From contig CAYIWD010000003.1 of assembly GCA_964367055.1 (NCBI GenBank), positions 1 to 38,580 of the forward strand: 38,580 bases of DNA. Direction: 5' to 3'. Numbering within the stretch: the stretch's first letter is position 1; every line of letters begins with the position of its first letter. The notes under the pieces were generated by a model that saw nothing but the letters and a program-made list of their open reading frames with translations, ran no database searches and was not told the DNA's origin. Origin of the DNA: an uncultured Candidatus Saccharibacteria bacterium. Its GTDB lineage: Bacteria; Patescibacteriota; Minisyncoccia; UBA6257; UBA9933. This document shows positions 1 to 38,580 of this stretch, piece after piece. The position numbers and the translations under genes are program-made.

Positions 1-11
1 GTTCTAGAATG

Positions 12-82
12 TGACCCTACGGGGAATTGAACCCCGACCTCAGCAATGCGAATGCTGTGTAATGCCGTTTTACTATAGGCCC
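12..82 (-). tRNA. tRNA-Ala(CGC), atypical acceptor stem
   Basis: Minus strand GGGCCTATAGTAAAACGGCATTACA CAGCA-TTCGCAT-TGCTG AGGT CGGGG-TTCAATT-CCCCG TAGGGTCA folds as a cloverleaf with anticodon CGC. No encoded CCA. Confidence 0.85.
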
Positions 83-495: not shown

Positions 496-2028
496 TTATT
501 TAACGTAATATTTTTTCTTCATTTCCTCCTCAACACCGCTTTCAAACTCGTCTTTTCTTTCGCCCGCTTTTTTTGCTAATTTTTTAAGCTCGGCGTCTGG
601 TAATATTCCTAAATCTTTAATCTTTAATTTTAAACCTTCAATATTATTTTTTTCCGGCTCTTCAATTACTTCGTCTAGTAAAATCGCCAAAATCTGCCCC
701 ACTTTTGGCCCAGCTGGAATACTTAAAATTCTCATCACATCATTACCGTTGACATTTAGCATTTTTGGCGAGAGCGGATCGTGTTTGACCTTCTCAATCA
801 TAAAAAGTAGGTGTCGATTTTTATAAGGCACCGCCTTGGGCGTGCCTGAGCCGATTCTATCCGCTTCGCGAAGTTTTAATAGATCATCTACATTTTCCGG
901 CCCCACCCGCGCCAAAAACCTTCTCACCCCAGCTTCTGAAACTTCGCCCACATTGTAATAAAACATATGATATCTGACAAGATGGCTAACTTTTTCTATC
1001 GTTTCTTTGGGGAAGCATAATATACCAAGCGCTCGAGCGGCCATTTTAGCGCTAAGTATTTCGTGTCCGTGAAAAGTCGCGTTATAACCTTCGCCTTGTT
1101 TGGTTTTGGGCTTGCCTAAATCATGTAATAAAGAAGCCAGGCGAATTTCCAGCGAATAATTTTGCTTGGCGGCATAATCAAGAGATCTGATATGGTGTTC
1201 AAATACTTCGTATATATGATGAAGATTTTGGGCGGCGCCGATGCCTTGTTCCAATTCGGGGAGAATATATTTTAATAGTCCTAATTTTTCTAAAAGCAAG
1301 ATGCCGCGGCTTGCTCCGGACGCCATAATTGTTTTTATAAATTCGTCGCGGATTCTTTCTTTGGCAATAATTTCTAAGAGCCCAGCGTGTTTTTCTATAG
1401 CTTCACTGGTTTTATTTTCAATCGTAAAATTAAGTTCAACCGCAAATCGCACCGCTCGCAACATTCGCAAAGCATCTTCAGTAAATCGTTTTTCTGGTTC
1501 ACCAACCGCGCGGATAAGTTTGCTTTCTAAATCTTTCTGGCCGTTAAACGAGTCAATTAATTCGTATTCATTCGTATCATTAGTATGCATTCGTATATTG
1601 GTATCACATTTTAATGCGATAGCATTAATCGTGAAATCGCGCCTAGCTAAATCTTCTTCTATTGTTCTGGCAAATTTGATTTCGTCCGGATGGCGTTTGT
1701 CGGTATATTTTCCTTCCAAGCGAAAAGTGGTAATTTCAACAATTTTTAGCGACAGTTCTTCGTTTTCTGTTTTTACGCCAACCGTGCCAAATTGGTTCTC
1801 GTAAACACTATCTGGAAAAATCTCTTGAATTTCTTCTGGCCTTGCGTTTGTCGCAATGTCCCAATCTTTGGGTCCGACCCGTCGGTCGGACTCCGACTGC
1901 GGTCGGAGTTCTTTTAGTAAAAGATCGCGAACGCAACCACCCACCAGATATGGCTGAAAATTAGCTTTAATCAATTGTTTTGCAATATCAATAATCTCTT
2001 TTGGGATTTTTAAATTCTTGATTTCCAT
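496..2028 (-). CDS. cca: CCA-adding tRNA nucleotidyltransferase with HD domain
   Basis: Motifs LVGGCVRD...PKDWDIAT, EITTFR, DLARRDFTINA, RFTEDALRMLRAVRF and LLHDLGK (HD). Confidence 0.93.
   Translation of the reverse strand: MEIKNLKIPKEIIDIAKQLIKANFQPYLVGGCVRDLLLKELRPQSESDRRVGPKDWDIATNARPEEIQEIFPDSVYENQFGTVGVKTENEELSLKIVEITTFRLEGKYTDKRHPDEIKFARTIEEDLARRDFTINAIALKCDTNIRMHTNDTNEYELIDSFNGQKDLESKLIRAVGEPEKRFTEDALRMLRAVRFAVELNFTIENKTSEAIEKHAGLLEIIAKERIRDEFIKTIMASGASRGILLLEKLGLLKYILPELEQGIGAAQNLHHIYEVFEHHIRSLDYAAKQNYSLEIRLASLLHDLGKPKTKQGEGYNATFHGHEILSAKMAARALGILCFPKETIEKVSHLVRYHMFYYNVGEVSEAGVRRFLARVGPENVDDLLKLREADRIGSGTPKAVPYKNRHLLFMIEKVKHDPLSPKMLNVNGNDVMRILSIPAGPKVGQILAILLDEVIEEPEKNNIEGLKLKIKDLGILPDAELKKLAKKAGERKDEFESGVEEEMKKKYYVK
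1561..1605. repeat. 45-bp ATACGAAT-type degenerate tandem repeat, in frame in cca
   Basis: TTCGTATTCATTCGTATCATTAGTATGCATTCGTATATTGGTATC is nearly identical to intergenic 4239-4284 and encodes DTNIRMHTNDTNEYE. Confidence 0.85.
1873..1908. repeat. double-hairpin element (36-bp variant), in frame in cca
   Basis: TCCGAC-CCGTCG-GTCGGA-CTCCGAC-TGCG-GTCGGAG, with the same stems as the copies at 2195, 27456 and 27901. Confidence 0.92.
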
Positions 2029-2174: not shown

Positions 2175-2233
2175 CCGCCCATAGCTCAATTTGGTCCGAC
2201 CGTAGTCGGACTCCGACAAGGGTCGGAGTAGAG
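2175..2233 (+). pseudogene. 5' tRNA fragment with 34-bp double hairpin (2195-2228) in the D-loop
   Basis: CCGCCCA-TA-GCTC-AATTTGG-[element]-TAGAG(C) gives the acceptor 5' strand plus D arm. It runs straight into tRNA-Lys. Confidence 0.85.
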
Positions 2234-19278: not shown

Positions 19279-19725
19279 ATGAAAGATATTACTTTCAACC
19301 GTAGAGCTTTATATGATTATGAGATTTTAGAAATACTTGAGGCGGGTATTGAATTGAAAGGATTTGAAGTCAAATCCATTAAAACCGGCAGGATAAATCT
19401 GGCGGGTGCTTATGTTATTATCCGCGATAATCAGGCCTGGCTTTTAAATTCCGACATTCCCGCTTATCAGCCGAAAAATACGCCAGATGATTATAATTCC
19501 AAAAGAACCCGGAGGCTTTTGATTAAAAAATCGGAAATCAAAAACTTAATAGGCCGTGTTCAGGAAAAAGGCTTGACTTTGTTGCCTTTAAAAGTATATA
19601 CTAAGGGTAAGTCTGGTAGGATAAAGATAGAAATCGGCTTAGGAAAAAGCCGTAAAAAAGCCGACAAGAGAGAATTGATAAAAAAAAGGGAAGTTGAAAG
19701 GGAAATAAAAAGAATGGGAATGTAA
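19279..19725 (+). CDS. smpB: SsrA-binding protein
   Basis: NRRA..DY, EAGIEL.GFEVKSI, R.RRLL and G.....DKR motifs. Adjacent to tmRNA. Confidence 0.97.
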   Translation: MKDITFNRRALYDYEILEILEAGIELKGFEVKSIKTGRINLAGAYVIIRDNQAWLLNSDIPAYQPKNTPDDYNSKRTRRLLIKKSEIKNLIGRVQEKGLTLLPLKVYTKGKSGRIKIEIGLGKSRKKADKRELIKKREVEREIKRMGM

Positions 19726-20076
19726 TGTTTCGATGGCAGCACTTTTATAAAATTGCAAGTTGAGGACGATTCGTTACCTCATTAATCACCGAATCAAAAT
19801 CATAAGTGTCAACAAAAATTTGACTCCTGCTTTCGCTTTTGCCTAAGCGGCATCCCTTATTAATCGCTCAAGTTGATAAGAAGGGTGTTATACTTTGAGC
19901 TTACTCGTTGGGGTTTTACCAATTTTAACGAGGAAAATTTCAGGTAGAGAATTTGGAGGGTTTTGCTAAATTTTAACTTCTAAATTCTTCCGCCAGTTGG
20001 CGGATTCTAATTTAGCTAAACTTGTAGAGATTTTATAAATTTATTGTCAGACGCGGGTTCAACCCCGCCATTTCCA
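19716..20076 (+). ncRNA. ssrA: tmRNA, tag (A)VNKNLTPAFAFA* at 19808-19846
   Basis: Acceptor GGGAATG/CATTTCC-A with G3:U70, T arm GCGGG-TTCAAC-CCCGC, and a tag ORF after ATAAGT ending in AFAFA. Directly follows smpB. Confidence 0.92.
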
Positions 20077-20094
20077 CTAAAAAATTTAAATTAT

Positions 20095-26295: not shown

Positions 26296-26313
26296 AAGGG
26301 GCTTTTGCCCCTT
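26296..26313 (-). terminator. intrinsic terminator
   Basis: AAGGGGC-AAAA-GCCCCTT then TATTTTTT, at the stop of the sigma gene. Confidence 0.7.
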
Positions 26314-27265
26314 AAGATGAATCATGAATTTCTTTTAATGCCTTGCCAATTCTTCCTTCCCTGATTTTTGCTTTTGTTTTGTTTTCAATTTGTCTTACTC
26401 TCTCGCGAGAAATTTTGAAATCCTTGCCGATTTTGTCCAGTGTTTCTTCCTCTGGCGCCTTTTCGCTATTTTGGGGATTTTTTATGGTATAAGCGTTTCT
26501 TCGGCAAAGAATCTCTCGTTCTCTTTTCGTGAGTTTAAACAAGGCAGAATTTAACTTTCTCCGCAAATCCATTTTTTCAGCCGGGTCCTTATAGGTAAAA
26601 GGATCAAATGACCCTTTACCTAACTTTAACTCCCCATCCTCAGCGACGAAGTCAATTAATTCGTCTCCTTCTTCATCGGCGATTTTGAGATTTAGCGAAG
26701 TTGATTTTCGCATTGCCTTTTTCGCGTTTATCACCTCTCTTTGTTTTAAGCCTGATAGTTTAGCGATACTAGAGATATCAGCTTTCTTATTAGTGGCTTT
26801 CAGCTTGGCTTCGACTCTGGCTATTCTTAACATTGGCTGTAAAAGATAAATAGGGAAGCCATTATTCTTGCACAGCTCCCGCTGGATTCGTACCCGTATT
26901 CGCCACCAAGCATAGGTGCCGAACCGGCCTTTTTTGGGATTGAATTTTTTGGTTGCTTCTATTAGTCCGATATTTCCCGCTTGAACCAAATCATCAAAAT
27001 CCAGGCCTCTGTTTAGATATTTTTTAGCCACCGCAAATACCAACTTCAGGTTAGAACAGATAAGTGTTTCTCTTGCTTTTCGGTCGCCGTTTTTTATCGC
27101 CTTAGCTAACCTATTTTCATCCTCTCTACTGATAAATGGGAAACAACCGACTGCTTTGTAATAAGCATTAGATACTGTAGTACCCATCTTCTTGGATTTA
27201 TCCTCCTTCTCTTCTTCATTGGATAAAACTTCTTCATTAATCTCCTCTTCATTATCCCAGCCCAT
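26312..27265 (-). CDS. sigma-70 family factor (RpoD-like regions 1.2-4, no region 1.1)
   Basis: SNLKLV..VAKKY..RGL...DLVQAGNIGL and ISRERVRQIE. Start moved to ATG 27265, which follows SD AAGGAGGT. Confidence 0.88.
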   Translation of the reverse strand: MGWDNEEEINEEVLSNEEEKEDKSKKMGTTVSNAYYKAVGCFPFISREDENRLAKAIKNGDRKARETLICSNLKLVFAVAKKYLNRGLDFDDLVQAGNIGLIEATKKFNPKKGRFGTYAWWRIRVRIQRELCKNNGFPIYLLQPMLRIARVEAKLKATNKKADISSIAKLSGLKQREVINAKKAMRKSTSLNLKIADEEGDELIDFVAEDGELKLGKGSFDPFTYKDPAEKMDLRRKLNSALFKLTKREREILCRRNAYTIKNPQNSEKAPEEETLDKIGKDFKISRERVRQIENKTKAKIREGRIGKALKEIHDSS

Positions 27266-27330
27266 CTGAACCCACCTCCTTTCCAAATAAAATTTTAAAG
27301 GAACTCAACATAAAATTTCAACATATGATG

Positions 27331-27368
27331 TGCGTGTGGATGGAATCGAACCATCGGCCTCCATTTTA
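27331..27368 (-). pseudogene. 3' half of a tRNA-Ile-like gene
   Basis: TAAAATGGAGGCC GATGG-TTCGATT-CCATC CACACGCA matches the 3' halves of the neighbouring copies. Confidence 0.8.
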
Positions 27369-27401
27369 CCCGCCTGCCAAAGCCGATCCGAAATTTTGGT
27401 G

Positions 27402-27502
27402 TGGGTGTGGAAGGGATCGAACCTTCGGCCTCCATTTTATCAGAATGGCGTTCTACTCCGACCGTGGTCGGAGTCCGACAAAGGTCGGACCACTGAGCTA
27501 CG
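27402..27502 (-). pseudogene. tRNA-Ile(GAT) copy lacking the 5' acceptor strand, with the 34-bp double hairpin (27456-27489) in the D-loop
   Basis: GTAGCTCAGTGG-[element]-TAGAACG CCATT-CTGATAA-AATGG ... TTCGATC ... CACACCCA. Confidence 0.88.
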
Positions 27503-27520
27503 TTTTTAAATTTGACAATT

Positions 27521-27880
27521 CTATTCTATATTTAATTTAGTGGGCACACCAAGGATCGAACTTGGGACCTCCATTTTATCAGAATGGCGTTCTACCACTG
27601 AACTATGTGCCCTATGATTCCACGGAAATGTTTTATCTATAATTACTTTTTCTAAAATATCCTTTCTTTTATAACTTTTCAAGCGGTATTCTGACTTTTT
27701 AGCTTCGGTTAAATCTCCGCATAAAATAAAACACTTTAATTCTAATGGACTAATATTCTTCGTTGCCTTAACCAGTCCTTTATTATGTTGTGAGAATCGT
27801 CTTTCTATATTATCAGAACTTCCAATATAATAATAACCATTTTTTAAACTTTTTAAGATATAGACACCAGCCTTTTTCAT
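27521..27880 (-). CDS. small GIY-YIG nuclease (YhbQ/UPF0213/SLX1-like)
   Basis: GVYIL...YYIGSS.NIERR..QHN.G...T....P...EA...E..LK. The last ~30 codons read through tRNA-Ile. Confidence 0.9.
   Translation of the reverse strand: MKKAGVYILKSLKNGYYYIGSSDNIERRFSQHNKGLVKATKNISPLELKCFILCGDLTEAKKSEYRLKSYKRKDILEKVIIDKTFPWNHRAHSSVVERHSDKMEVPSSILGVPTKLNIE
27541..27612 (-). tRNA. tRNA-Ile(GAT), intact
   Basis: Acceptor GGGCACA/TGTGCCC-A, anticodon arm CCATT-CTGATAA-AATGG, T arm CCAAG-TTCGATC-CTTGG. Confidence 0.93.
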
Positions 27881-27952
27881 TTTATCAGGACAGCGTTTTG
27901 CTCCGACCGTTGTCGGAGTCCGACAAGGGTCGGGTCACTGAGCCACACGCCC
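27878..27952 (-). pseudogene. 5' half of tRNA-Ile(GAT) with the double hairpin (27901-27934) in the D-loop
   Basis: GGGCGTG TG GCTC AGTGA-[element]-CAAAACG CTGTC-CTGATAA-AATG. The final ATG is the GIY-YIG start codon. Confidence 0.85.
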
Positions 27953-27957
27953 AAGAG

Positions 27958-28158
27958 TTATTGTATAATTCCTAATTTCTCTAACCCCTCAAAATTAAAT
28001 TGAGTGATTTCTTTGACGTTTGCCAAGTCAGAGTTTGAGGCGTTTCTGGTATTTGTAATCAGAAAATTTACCGAATAGATAATGAACAAAGTCGTAATTA
28101 AAAGCAATAAAACGCCGATGGCGATAAACAAAATTTCACGTTTATTTTTTAATTTCAT
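27958..28158 (-). CDS. small single-pass membrane protein
   Basis: Basic N-terminus plus one TM segment, downstream of the PilO-like gene. Confidence 0.7.
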   Translation of the reverse strand: MKLKNKREILFIAIGVLLLLITTLFIIYSVNFLITNTRNASNSDLANVKEITQFNFEGLEKLGIIQ

Positions 28159-28180
28159 AAATATTATTTGTTTTAATTTG

Positions 28181-28696
28181 TTAGAAGGAAAATACGCCGC
28201 CAGTCATCAATAATCCAAAATCTTTTTCTTGTTTGGCGATATCAATTGTTTTAAATTTAATGAAGTATTGGCCGTTTTCAAGCGTCTTTAAAAAAACCAC
28301 AAAACCCTCAAAAGAACCCTGGCCACTGATGGTGAAGTTGGTTTGCTGTAATTCTTCGCTGTCTTGATATTCTCCTTGGCCAAGAGTTGTATTTAAATTA
28401 AACTTATTTTGTTTGGCAATACTAACGATATTTTTGGGAAAGGCAATTAATTGGTCGCGACTAGGTAAAATATTTTGAAGCGTAGCTTCGTAACTTTTTG
28501 CTGTTTCGGCTTGTTGATTTAGAATTGCCAAAGAGTCAGTTAGCCCCGTCTGGAAAAGCAAATCCCCTCTTAATTTCTCAATTTGGCTAGTTTTTTTACT
28601 CATATCAGAGCCGACAAAAAACAGAGCCAATATTAAAGTTAAGCAAACGCCCAAGGGGACGGTAATAATAACCAAGAGACGCTTTCTAAAATTCAT
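28181..28696 (-). CDS. PilO/GspM-like type IV pilus assembly protein
   Basis: N-terminal TM, coiled coil, LP motif, then G.F.....FL..LE....FI pattern of the ferredoxin-like domain. Confidence 0.65.
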   Translation of the reverse strand: MNFRKRLLVIITVPLGVCLTLILALFFVGSDMSKKTSQIEKLRGDLLFQTGLTDSLAILNQQAETAKSYEATLQNILPSRDQLIAFPKNIVSIAKQNKFNLNTTLGQGEYQDSEELQQTNFTISGQGSFEGFVVFLKTLENGQYFIKFKTIDIAKQEKDFGLLMTGGVFSF

Positions 28697-37845: not shown

Positions 37846-38493
37846 ATGAAACCGTTAGAAAAAGTTAAAATTAAGTGGTCGTCGAATTTTGCTTACGCGA
37901 TAGGGCTTTTAACAACCGATGGAAGTTTATCAACGGATGGAAGACATATAGAAATTACATCAAAAGACGAAGAGCAGCTTAAAAATTTTATTAAATGTTT
38001 AAATATTAAAAATAAAATAGGATTTAAACATTCTGGTTCTGGCAAATTACATAAAAGAGTCCAATTCAGTGATGTTAATTTTTATAAATTTTTAATGATT
38101 ATCGGCCTAATGCCAAGAAAAACGAAAATAATAGCGGCCATAAAAATTCCAAAAAGTTATTTTTTTGATTTTTTACGCGGCCACTTTGATGGCGATGGAA
38201 CTTTTTATTCTTATTGGGATCCGCGCTGGAGATCTAGCTATATGTTTTATAGTGTTTTTGTTTCGGCGAGCAAAAGTCATATTGGTTGGCTTCAAAAAGA
38301 AATTTCTAATTTTTTGAAAATAAAAGGACATATTACAAAAAGCGTTAATGATTCGGTTTATCAACTAAAATACGCAAAGGCGGAATCATTGAAATTATTG
38401 CCAAAAGTATATTATGATAAGAACGTAATTTGCCTTTCGCGAAAACGGCAGAAAATAGAAAAGGCATTAAAAATAATTAATAAAAATCTATAA
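37846..38493 (+). CDS. free-standing two-motif LAGLIDADG endonuclease-like protein
   Basis: Motifs AYAIGLLTTDGS and DFLRGHFDGDG, ending in LSRK. Confidence 0.88.
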   Translation: MKPLEKVKIKWSSNFAYAIGLLTTDGSLSTDGRHIEITSKDEEQLKNFIKCLNIKNKIGFKHSGSGKLHKRVQFSDVNFYKFLMIIGLMPRKTKIIAAIKIPKSYFFDFLRGHFDGDGTFYSYWDPRWRSSYMFYSVFVSASKSHIGWLQKEISNFLKIKGHITKSVNDSVYQLKYAKAESLKLLPKVYYDKNVICLSRKRQKIEKALKIINKNL

Positions 38494-38507: not shown

Positions 38508-38580
38508 GCGCGGGTGGTGAAACCTGGTAAACACGCCATCTTGAGGTGGTGGTGCCGAAAGGCTTGGAGGTTCAAATCCT
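38508..38580 (+). tRNA. tRNA-Leu(GAG), truncated by the window end
   Basis: GCGCGGG TG GTG AAACCTGGTAAA CAC G CCATC-TTGAGGT-GGTGG, variable arm GCC-GAAA-GGC, GGAGG-TTCAAAT-CCT. Confidence 0.92.

Follow-up and report, generated by a model that had tools for sequence, protein, structure and literature searches.

The closest known system to the locus described here is that of the phage endonuclease SegB, and the nearest one in the same phylum is formed by the GIY-YIG insertions in ribosomal RNA (rRNA) genes of bacteria of the Candidate Phyla Radiation (CPR). The locus belongs to an uncultured Candidatus Saccharibacteria bacterium and was analysed within a stretch of 38,580 nucleotides (nt) of its genome (contig CAYIWD010000003.1 of assembly GCA_964367055.1), which we call the window. 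It contains the gene of a small GIY-YIG nuclease between a dead 5' fragment of a transfer RNA (tRNA) gene for isoleucine, the stub, and an intact tRNA-Ile gene. Genes of this kind, which encode proteins of about 85-90 amino acids, form a widespread family living in tRNA loci of Patescibacteria (CPR), where the arrangement is repeated at a variety of tRNA genes in ultra-small bacteria of groundwater. The recurrent unit is composed of a dead 5' stub that is interrupted or partly replaced by hairpins, an open reading frame (ORF) packed against the stub, and an intact co-oriented tRNA gene at the ORF stop. We put at roughly 65% the probability that the nuclease gene is a free-standing homing-type selfish element, reduced to the GIY-YIG catalytic domain, that colonises tRNA genes.

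SegB is a free-standing GIY-YIG endonuclease encoded in a tRNA cluster of T-even phages; it recognises the T-psi-C motif and spreads with neighbouring tRNA genes, as set out in parts of PMC2330249. According to sections of PMC13096335, SegB cuts inside tRNA genes and drives a recombination-dependent tandem amplification of tRNA genes together with segB, with junctions at tRNA/segB microhomologies, and tRNAs of many different isotypes have an excess of SegB homologues within 1 kb. The window nuclease resembles SegB in that its gene lies outside an intron and among tRNA genes. SegB is a phage protein of about 220 amino acids in all, with a C-terminal DNA-binding part and a recognition site of about 27 bp, whereas the window nuclease has about 90 amino acids, consists of the catalytic domain only, and is encoded in a CPR chromosome. 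Unlike segB, its gene is located between a stub and a live copy of one tRNA, together with lineage-specific hairpins, and its similarity to phage homing endonucleases is confined to the N-terminal motif. With free-standing homing endonucleases it shares the lack of an intron, the presence/absence polymorphism in relatives, and the association with tRNA genes, but not a separate DNA-binding domain with a long recognition site.

The insertions in CPR rRNA genes contain GIY-YIG ORFs, resemble neither group I nor group II introns, and mostly occupy the tops or bases of stem-loops; they are sparse, the authors place them outside a homing context, and the main text does not contain the word tRNA (sections of PMC11270868). 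In the window, the functional RNA gene is instead intact beside the ORF, and a stub has been created.

Short GC-rich palindromes that often occur as doublets, are associated with an enzyme, co-vary with it, and are able to stand alone are known from the systems of repetitive extragenic palindromes (REP) and their associated tyrosine transposases (RAYT), also called REPIN, and from IS200/IS605. An initial annotation of the locus had compared the double hairpins on both sides of the nuclease gene to REPs flanking RAYT genes. The likeness is loose. It extends to the presence of hairpins on both sides in the window and to the co-variation of palindrome type with enzyme lineage at nuclease loci; it ends at the enzyme, which is a GIY-YIG nuclease and not a HUH (Y1) transposase, at the number of hairpin core sites, 7 in 574,538 bases, and at the position of the hairpins, which are mostly restricted to the upstream stub. 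Rickettsia palindromic elements are small palindromic modules that occur in frame in protein-coding genes. A 36-nt module in the CCA-adding enzyme gene of the window is inserted in frame in the same manner; the organism and the sequence are different, the module is much shorter, and it is linked to a candidate mobilising enzyme.

In Caldiarchaeum, a 5' fragment of tRNA-Thr is located 1.8 kb upstream of the tRNA gene, with a recombinase-encoding element between them, as described in parts of PMC3293823. The locus shares with integrative elements and with this archaeal model the tRNA fragment on one side and the working tRNA on the other. Integrase islands have a tyrosine or serine integrase and a duplication of the tRNA 3' end; the locus has no integrase or recombinase, its insert has about 270 bp and is essentially one ORF, and what is duplicated is the 5' part of the tRNA, plugged by hairpins. 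A full-text literature search that left most subscription journals and supplements outside its reach returned no published account of bacterial GIY-YIG genes nested at tRNA genes with stubs and hairpins.

The locus extends from 27331 to 27952 and is read on the minus strand, from 27952 to 27331; coordinates given without a contig or locus name are those of the window. All elements listed in the initial annotation are present at their places and in the order given there: stub A, the GIY-YIG ORF, the intact tRNA-Ile(GAU) gene B, a further copy C, a spacer, and the 3' half D.

27878-27952, minus strand: stub A, the non-functional 5' portion of a gene resembling tRNA-Ile(GAU) (from the sequence, its repeat with copy C, and a match to locus L083)
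27901-27934, minus strand: 34-nt double-hairpin module in the D-loop of stub A (from the sequence; DNA fold -13 kcal/mol, z -4.4)
27521-27880, minus strand: GIY-YIG nuclease ORF (Pfam PF01541, E 7.4e-15)
27540-27612, minus strand: intact tRNA-Ile(GAU), copy B, with acceptor GGGCACA/TGTGCCC (ARAGORN; Rfam RF00005, 71.7 bits)
27402-27501, minus strand: copy C, a 5'-truncated tRNA-Ile copy comprising positions 8-73, with a proper 3' end (Rfam tRNA, 26.3 bits)
27369-27401, minus strand: 33-nt GC-rich spacer (letter-for-letter identical in the same-genus genome G001)
27331-27368, minus strand: fragment D, 3' half of tRNA-Ile(GAU), starting at TAAAATGG and ending at the discriminator (a single mismatch against the same half of the intact G001 tRNA-Ile)

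Stub A consists of a GGGCGTG acceptor strand, a GCTC D-stem, an interrupted D-arm, and an anticodon arm that reaches up to TAAAATG. Its terminus, CTGATAAAATG, corresponds to the anticodon loop and the 3' stem strand of tRNA-Ile(GAU). Copy B is the only tRNA-Ile(GAU) detected in the genome by ARAGORN, and is separated from copy C by a 38-nt AT-rich stretch. Copy C lacks acceptor positions 1-7, carries a double hairpin (27456-27489) in its D-loop, and scores below the Rfam gathering threshold of 29 bits. Stub A and copy C contain a 69-nt direct repeat with 86% identity. As the initial annotation had pointed out, the T-stems of the three copies differ and all of them pair. In its T-arm and acceptor, copy C does not differ from the tRNA-Ile(UAU) of the same genome, which points to gene conversion between the two Ile loci, with the tRNA-Ile(UAU) gene as the probable donor.

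The motif TAAAATG is present at 27884-27878 and again at 27368-27362, and so A ends and D begins at the same place in the anticodon arm. In the initial annotation, this had been taken as the mark of one gene split by an insert of about 0.5 kb. It could also be the mark of an endonuclease-encoding intron, such as a group I intron in the anticodon loop, or of a split tRNA the parts of which, A and D, are joined as RNA. Group I introns with GIY-YIG genes exist, and introns in the anticodon loop of bacterial tRNAs are known. We nevertheless consider an intron or a split tRNA extremely improbable. The would-be intron holds a complete tRNA-Ile and another tRNA copy, and the genome is already served by the intact tRNA-Ile(GAU). 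Between A and D, the acceptor strands pair at only 5 of 7 positions in the tRNA register, and A has a divergent anticodon stem besides the 34-nt insert in its D-loop. A scan of 26800-28500 for RNA families identified no group I or II intron at E<=10, but only the tRNA hits and matches at chance level. A 3' half was found at only 2 of 52 homologue loci. The split of a single gene is not supported, on the same pairing and the same count, and also because A and D are derived from different tRNA-Ile alleles, A matching that of the metagenome locus L083 and D that of G001, and because G001 has tRNA fragments without the ORF.

An origin of the arrangement by chance decay of tandem tRNA genes, or by misassembly of a repeat in a metagenome-assembled genome, is very improbable. 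The assembly is divided into 34 contigs, some of which, including the window, end in tRNA genes, and positions 27369-27374 are the only ones that are unbridged by any of the exact-match contig pieces listed. On the other hand, exact-match contigs from 4 runs (2 samples of 1 study, possibly the window's own source) tile the rest of the locus, which is thus not an obvious misassembly; one contig of 937 nt covers 27433-28369, with the hairpin of C, B, the ORF, and A. The same architecture is present in more than 50 independently assembled loci, and the hairpin core GTCGGASTCCGAC has 8 strand-matches at 4 sites in the window versus the 0.19 expected from shuffled sequences.

The ATG of the nuclease ORF is provided by the last three letters of the TAAAATG that ends stub A. 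The conserved protein corresponds to residues 1-90 (27880-27611), and the open frame continues through tRNA B to 119 amino acids. The GIY-YIG ORF that had been annotated between the stub and the tRNA is therefore present, but does not end ahead of the tRNA, as the junction is one base out of register with the tRNA TAG. In comparison with a paralogue on contig C5 of the same genome, the window ORF is one base shorter at the junction with the tRNA, and it is because of this lost base that it reads through. In locus L002 (1481-1512), the ATG of a 57%-identical homologue is out of frame across a (TA)n run, owing to a frameshift or a sequencing error.

The sole domain found in the protein is PF01541 (residues 4-73), with a score of 55.4 bits against a cutoff of 22.6. 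Among 10 aligned homologues, Tyr7, Gly20, His32, and Glu64 are invariant, and Tyr18 and Arg28 are conserved in at least 90%. By analogy with I-TevI and UvrC, we take the tyrosines of GIY and YIG, the arginine, the histidine, and the glutamate to be the catalytic residues. Matches to the PDB are weak and about equal, to the catalytic domain of I-TevI (1mk0, E 1.3e-3) and to the UPF0213 protein BH0048 (1zg2, E 1.7e-3), and cover the catalytic domain only; neither Pfam nor the PDB matches provided a separate DNA-binding domain in the protein of about 90 residues. NCBIfam gave nothing above its cutoffs, and the matches in NCBIfam, PHROGs, and PADLOC were limited to sub-threshold N-terminal ones to homing endonucleases. 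A reading of the nuclease as part of a defence system was rejected, as PADLOC and PHROGs contained only these weak matches to homing endonucleases or the N-terminal motif.

The protein is under purifying selection, with dN/dS (the ratio of non-synonymous to synonymous substitution rates) of 0.05-0.27 among the eight closest homologues, for 21 of 28 pairs that were computable and with dS often near saturation. The genes of these eight adjoin tRNA-Ile(GAU), Ile(UAU), Val(CAC), Thr(CGU), Gly(CCC), and Phe(GAA). Low dN/dS together with such varied neighbours indicates, therefore, that the protein is kept intact while the adjoining tRNA changes.

To place the locus among its relatives, we used the 90-residue protein as a query. 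In 41 related genomes, there were 41 matches at E<=1e-8, which together with one copy from the source genome (G000) gave 42 loci. A class sample of 401 genomes contained 49 that matched at E<=1e-12, from which the best 29 of the 56 matches outside G000 were taken as loci. A metagenome scan (34 loci) and a scan of genome contigs (4 loci) contributed 34 distinct loci, five of them with cut flanks. A locus was assigned to the tRNA class if an intact co-oriented tRNA started between -45 and +90 nt from the ORF stop; in L001 and L003, where the frame reads through the tRNA, the distance was taken from the end of the protein match.

The tRNA class includes 56 of the 105 distinct loci, with 27 anticodons; among the 1440 stop-to-stop frames in G000 with 70 codons or more, 17 have a co-oriented tRNA that starts at such a distance. 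It accounts for 16 of the 42 loci of the relatives, where the tRNA starts between 21 nt before and 31 nt after the ORF stop, for 13 of the 34 metagenome and genome-contig loci, and for 27 of the best 29 of 56 class matches outside G000, a best-scoring sample that is skewed to the clade of the query. The end of the ORF falls on tRNA position +1 or just ahead of it, and in the window's clade its stop is very often the TAG at tRNA positions 8-10. At the other end, the ORF starts within a few bases after the stub, with the ATG sometimes in tRNA-derived sequence.

The first ten positions of the adjoining tRNA recur exactly within 150 nt upstream of the ORF in 21 of the 56 tRNA-class loci, versus 0.2% in a cross-locus control, and with up to 2 mismatches in 37 of 56 versus 13.6%. 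Most of the remaining loci of this class, inspected by reading, also have tRNA-like 5' parts, in which the acceptor has diverged or hairpins are placed among the first ten bases. The enrichment of tRNAs, stubs, and hairpins (47 of 56, see below) in the flanks of homologues, which the initial annotation had suggested as a check, was thus borne out. We considered whether the live tRNA is generally followed by a 3' partial copy, as it is in the window, and discarded this, since such a copy is present in 2 of 52 loci by a strict test and in a few more by eye.

Proteins that are at least 58% identical are found at 9 different anticodons. The nuclease thus switches among tRNA targets, and the unit of stub, hairpin, ORF, and tRNA is recreated each time. 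A nuclease match at E<=1e-8 is present in 26 of the 41 relatives and absent from 15. The context classes are clade-specific on a protein tree that includes one altered row.

These data bear on the possibility that the nuclease is a domesticated, host-beneficial factor in DNA repair or in tRNA or other RNA metabolism that is co-transcribed with tRNAs, the stubs and hairpins being by-products of the duplication of tRNA genes and of small, unrelated palindromic repeats settling in dead DNA. The strong purifying selection is as expected for such a factor, the tight co-orientation and overlap with tRNA genes suggest co-transcription, and there are up to 6 matches at E<=1e-8 in G000. A survey from 2006, in parts of its text, describes a fusion of GIY-YIG to a TrmH-like tRNA methyltransferase and suggests RNA roles for Slx1-like prokaryotic proteins (PMC1564403). 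However, the gene is missing, at E<=1e-8, from 15 of 41 relatives, including a genome of the same genus; with 27 anticodons it has no fixed partner; the stub-hairpin-ORF layout is rebuilt at each new tRNA; and the hairpin type follows the nuclease clade, which is unexpected for unrelated repeats. We therefore regard a host-beneficial role as improbable.

In other parts of the family, the arrangement is different. In 7 of the 42 loci of the relatives, the ORF is preceded by a tRNA that ends 11-93 nt upstream; one of them, L012, has a tRNA on the downstream side as well and is counted both here and in the tRNA class. A mirror arrangement of intact tRNA, hairpins, and GIY-YIG ORF is found in other clades (L006, L009, L014, L022, L023, L031, L047), and in L006 and L009 the ORF is followed by a 3' partial copy of the same tRNA. 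L047 is from a genome record of Crocinitomicaceae (Bacteroidota), and the adjacency to tRNA thus reaches beyond the CPR. About 13 of the 42 loci have no tRNA and are flanked by inverted repeats of 16-23 bp. Sister clades of the small GIY-YIG family reside in this manner away from tRNAs, between 16-23-bp inverted repeats (L010, L018, L019, L024, L025, L029, L030, L032, L035, L036, L093-L107, and L111-L114, and in G000 at C1:44755, C9:20849, and C27:2522). The right arm of the repeat overlaps the last codons of the ORF and is often directly adjacent to the start codon of the gene that follows. One group of these repeats (ACCCTGTTAAATA / TATTTAACAGGGT) precedes an ORF with the motif MPNHIHGI, which we take to be IS200/RAYT-like.

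The hairpin inserts fold as DNA with energies of -12 to -15 kcal/mol and z of -3.3 to -4.9. In the genome of 574,538 bases, the core occurs at 7 sites, most of them in tRNA-derived DNA: stub A, copy C, a tRNA-Lys stub, the gene of the CCA-adding enzyme, sites on contigs C5 and C10, and, at the end of contig C21, the T-loop of a tRNA fragment. Two of these sites are at the beginning of the window:

2175-2233, plus strand: second stub, without an ORF, made of the first 25 positions of a G001/G021-type tRNA-Lys(CUU), with a hairpin doublet at 2195-2228 in the D-loop
1873-1908, plus strand: 36-nt double-hairpin module that adds 12 codons in frame to the gene of the CCA-adding enzyme (ORF 496-2028, minus strand); the orthologue in G001 lacks it

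The D-loop inserts are positioned at the same place, after AGTGG. Since the CCA-adding enzyme gene of G001 has no 36-nt insert, the hairpin module is mobile by itself; it moves and inserts alone. In the metagenome locus L085, the module is tandemly expanded to at least 3 units about 130 nt upstream of the ORF; it is also present after the tRNA-Val, where a 3' partial copy downstream of the live gene has it in its T-loop.

Of the 56 tRNA-class loci, 47 have a perfect GC-rich hairpin, with a stem of 6 bp or more, no further than 110 nt upstream of the ORF, versus 12 of the 49 others. At the tRNA-class loci, these hairpins lie within tRNA-derived sequence, typically as a D-loop doublet in the window's clade. 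In L050-L053, a conserved GGTCCGA-N6-TCGGACAGG hairpin replaces the anticodon arm, as does a hairpin of the CCCGATGG type in L055, L057, L059, L064, and L071, and in the tRNA-Cys clade a hairpin doublet is placed inside the anticodon. On a FastTree phylogeny, the hairpin type tracks the nuclease clade and not the host family. Stems of the CCGAC type are present in 13 of 14 rows of the clade around the window protein, these 13 including four named host families and metagenome rows, and hairpins of the TCTCCC type in 5 of 5 rows of the Cys clade, across four host families. Conversely, the host families f1 and f40 have several hairpin types each. In a small sample, none of 3 genomes of the same family that are free of the nuclease contains the hairpin core, whereas genome G097 has it at its nuclease locus.

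The source genome, with 574,538 bases in 34 contigs, a GC content of 37%, and a completeness of 92.3%, includes the window as contig C3. It has up to 6 nuclease matches at E<=1e-8, the most in one genome. A second full copy of the unit, at C5:20246-20690, is composed of a stub with a double hairpin in the D-loop, TAAAATG, the ORF, an intact tRNA-Ile(UAU), and a 3' tRNA fragment. The C5 ORF is 76% identical to that of the window, and its stop is the TAG at positions 8-10 of the tRNA. A third and more distant GIY-YIG gene is located on C21, directly upstream of tRNA-Asn and with a hairpin nearby.

The tRNA at C5:20587-20659 (1770-1842 of locus L027) has the UAU anticodon. A tRNA-Ile with this anticodon is rare in bacteria. 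ARAGORN identified a single tRNA with a CAT anticodon in the assembly, which is 92% complete, and AUA may be read without a lysidine tRNA. Many contigs start or end in or beside a tRNA, among them C3 at both ends (window 11-82 and 38508-38580), C11, C21, C23, C28, and C30, as expected if repeated tRNA-derived pieces break the assembly.

Comparison with G001, which is 84% complete and has no nuclease match at E<=1e-8, provides the states of the Ile loci without the ORF. At the FtsH locus, orthologous to that on C5, the FtsH stop is followed by about 120 nt of unrelated spacer and then by tRNA-Ile(UAU), with no stub, hairpin, or ORF. At the orthologue of the window locus, G001 has a 5' tRNA fragment that is free of hairpins, followed by some 55 nt without assignment, an intact tRNA-Ile(GAU) with the acceptor GCGTGTG/CACACGC, the 33-nt spacer, and a 3' fragment. 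The empty state in relatives that the initial annotation had looked to was hence found in part: G001 is free of the ORF at both Ile loci and its FtsH site is empty, but its Ile(GAU) site already contains the outer fragments. Because G001 has these fragments without the ORF, they are older than the split between the window genome and G001.

By position, copy C is orthologous to the intact tRNA-Ile of G001. The acceptor and D-arm of stub A, in turn, match both the stub and the live tRNA-Ile of L083, a locus with the simple layout of stub, hairpin doublet, ORF, and tRNA-Ile and with a nuclease that is 79% identical to that of the window. The window locus is thus a mosaic of at least four tRNA-Ile sources.

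A second mosaic was found in the tRNA-Arg/Lys/Gly cluster. G001 has tRNA-Arg directly followed by an intact tRNA-Lys(CUU), and the syntenic site of genome G021 (L028) has a stub, a hairpin, a GIY-YIG ORF, and tRNA-Lys. In the window, the Lys stub is fused to a quite different tRNA-Lys(CUU) at 2234-2305, of a type that is common in the class (100 of 401 genomes at E<=1e-6). Its best match, with 92% identity, is in another family, beside tRNA-Arg(UCG) and with no nuclease. Since the stub is of the G001/G021 type, the live tRNA-Lys is of the class-wide type, and G021 has the ORF at this place, the site is an ORF-less scar at the junction of two kinds of DNA, where the tRNA appears to have been replaced. 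An import of this tRNA-Lys together with a nuclease was considered and rejected, as the 11 best-matching loci elsewhere have no GIY-YIG match.

The gene is thus present in multiple copies, patchily distributed, polymorphic between congeners, able to switch targets, under selection, and accompanied by lineage-matched hairpins, and these are the marks of a selfish mobile gene; the mobile tRNA-associated nuclease system proposed in the initial annotation is well supported by the comparative data, with the addition that the hairpin module moves alone. The cutting at hairpins or tRNA genes, which the annotation had also proposed, is putative. For the target of the nuclease, the origin of the stub, and the role of the hairpins, we infer the following sequence of events. 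By analogy with SegB, the nuclease would break the tRNA-gene DNA of genomes or alleles that are free of the element. Repair would then copy the cassette, with conserved tRNA sequence serving as homology, the stub as the left arm and the live tRNA as the right arm. The element could in this way enter any genome with a similar tRNA, and no flanking homology would be required. The host would retain a working tRNA and the old copy would remain as a stub, and mosaics and replaced tRNA alleles would result. The ORF may be expressed from the tRNA promoter kept in the stub. The hairpins would travel with the nuclease lineage and could insert alone; they probably destroy the stub as a target of the nuclease, or else as a direct repeat by which the ORF could be deleted. 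The window would be a compound of several such events, in which A, the ORF, and an imported tRNA B were placed upstream of the former resident C, with the older D behind it. The genes for DprA and pilus-like proteins next door, which are context only, are compatible with DNA uptake.

Several points weigh against a homing-type selfish element. The cleavage is assumed by analogy, and sequence-specific homing may be beyond a protein of 90 amino acids that has no separate DNA-binding domain of the sort to which SegB and I-TevI owe their site specificity. The live tRNA beside the ORF would keep any tRNA recognition sequence, which leaves the immunity of occupied alleles unexplained. Of the 105 loci, 49 lie elsewhere than at the start of a tRNA: 8 come after a tRNA, many have 16-23-bp inverted repeats, and 5 have cut flanks; the class sample of best-scoring matches, in addition, leans towards the query's clade. 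The low dN/dS would fit a host-beneficial gene equally well. The break points of the stubs are scattered over the D-, anticodon-, and T-arms in an automatic mapping that is noisy and partly spurious; a restriction of these break points to tRNA loops, which we had considered, is contradicted by the same mapping. In most loci, by reading, the start of the stub is only about 1-3 nt away from tRNA position +1, which is not predicted by simple DNA homology. The stubs of the window and of C5 are unlike the adjoining tRNA, whereas in many other loci the two are nearly identical, and more than one history is therefore needed. Finally, a move to another tRNA species by homology alone would give chimeric dead tRNAs, and some other step is needed, for which structure-guided cutting, a long target duplication, and illegitimate joining are candidates.

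The first of these steps is central to a different explanation, which sharpens the idea of the initial annotation. In it, a structure-specific nuclease of the SLX1/UPF0213 kind would cut at the loops or bases of extruded stem-loops, or of single-stranded tRNA-gene DNA folded into a cloverleaf, and the gene and its cognate palindromes would be pasted into these cuts, as a GIY-YIG analogue of REP/RAYT and IS200/IS605. The hairpin type varies with the nuclease clade and not with the host, the module occurs alone in frame in a protein gene and in D-loops after AGTGG, and hairpins substitute for anticodon arms. In most loci the right edge of the ORF coincides with tRNA +1, where the acceptor stem has its base, and the sister ORFs between 16-23-bp inverted repeats are in the loop of a long hairpin. 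The protein matches UPF0213 BH0048 (1zg2) as well as it matches I-TevI. The non-intron GIY-YIG insertions in CPR rRNA genes are at the top or base of stem-loops, as stated in parts of PMC11270868. Against this, the 7 core sites in 574 kb are far below REP-like numbers, the stub break points extend beyond loops in the noisy mapping, no terminal repeats or target duplications bound a hairpin unit, and in most loci hairpins are present only upstream. To our knowledge, there is no biochemical precedent for a GIY-YIG enzyme as a transposase. We consider a structure-guided hairpin element unlikely, and keep it under discussion because of the stub start near tRNA +1, the sister ORFs between inverted repeats, and the stem-loop positions of the rRNA insertions.

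A more tentative reading, which we consider possible but less likely than not, is a hitherto undescribed class of minimal bacterial element made of the nuclease of about 90 amino acids and its own lineage-specific palindromic modules. It would read folded DNA (stem-loop or cloverleaf) and not a long sequence, insert at tRNA genes, regenerate the live tRNA, plug or replace the arms of the leftover copy with its hairpins, and carry tRNA alleles, and perhaps adjoining genes, between CPR lineages. If this were true, single-copy tRNA genes would be the main recombination hot spots of these tiny genomes.

With a homing-type selfish element, which we favour, the principle of SegB, by which a GIY-YIG nuclease takes advantage of how conserved tRNA genes are, would reach beyond T-even phages into chromosomes throughout an entire radiation of bacteria, with a much smaller protein. 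An enzyme of 90 amino acids that finds tRNA genes would be a useful model of how GIY-YIG proteins consisting of the catalytic domain only choose their targets. The stub-hairpin-ORF-tRNA unit accounts for tRNA fragments, 'tRNA-like' pieces, and contig breaks in CPR assemblies. The replacement of tRNA alleles and the gain of adjacent genes would be a route of horizontal transfer in genomes that have very few classical mobile elements, of which the sigma-factor gene beside the locus and the tRNA-Lys block, both differing from G001, are candidate examples. The clade-specific hairpins, replacing anticodon arms or inserted in frame, would be a new small repeat family with a candidate mobilising enzyme.

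The neighbouring ORFs of the locus encode a sigma factor, a PilO-like protein, and DprA, and there is no integrase or recombinase among the ORFs around it, in agreement with the initial annotation. A promoter scan of 27200-28250 gave 4 promoter-like sites versus 3.5 expected, and a terminator scan of the same region found none. The sigma-70 family gene that adjoins the Ile locus (26312-27286) encodes Pfam regions 2, 3, and 4 and an unusual acidic N-terminus. It is missing from the syntenic place in G001, and its protein has no match in 40 relatives at E<=1e-40, which is a strict limit; the gene may have been gained at a tRNA-Ile hot spot.

A scan of the whole window for RNA families added only a transfer-messenger RNA (tmRNA) gene and a tRNA cut by the contig end. 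The tmRNA gene (19716-20079; Rfam RF00023, 114.4 bits) was not reported by ARAGORN. The cut tRNA (38508-38580) is of type II and Ser-like, with TGA in the anticodon loop. An ORF of the LAGLIDADG type (37846-38493, 215 amino acids, PF14528, E 1e-5) ends 14 nt before this tRNA, and is thus a second kind of homing-endonuclease gene located directly upstream of a tRNA in the window.

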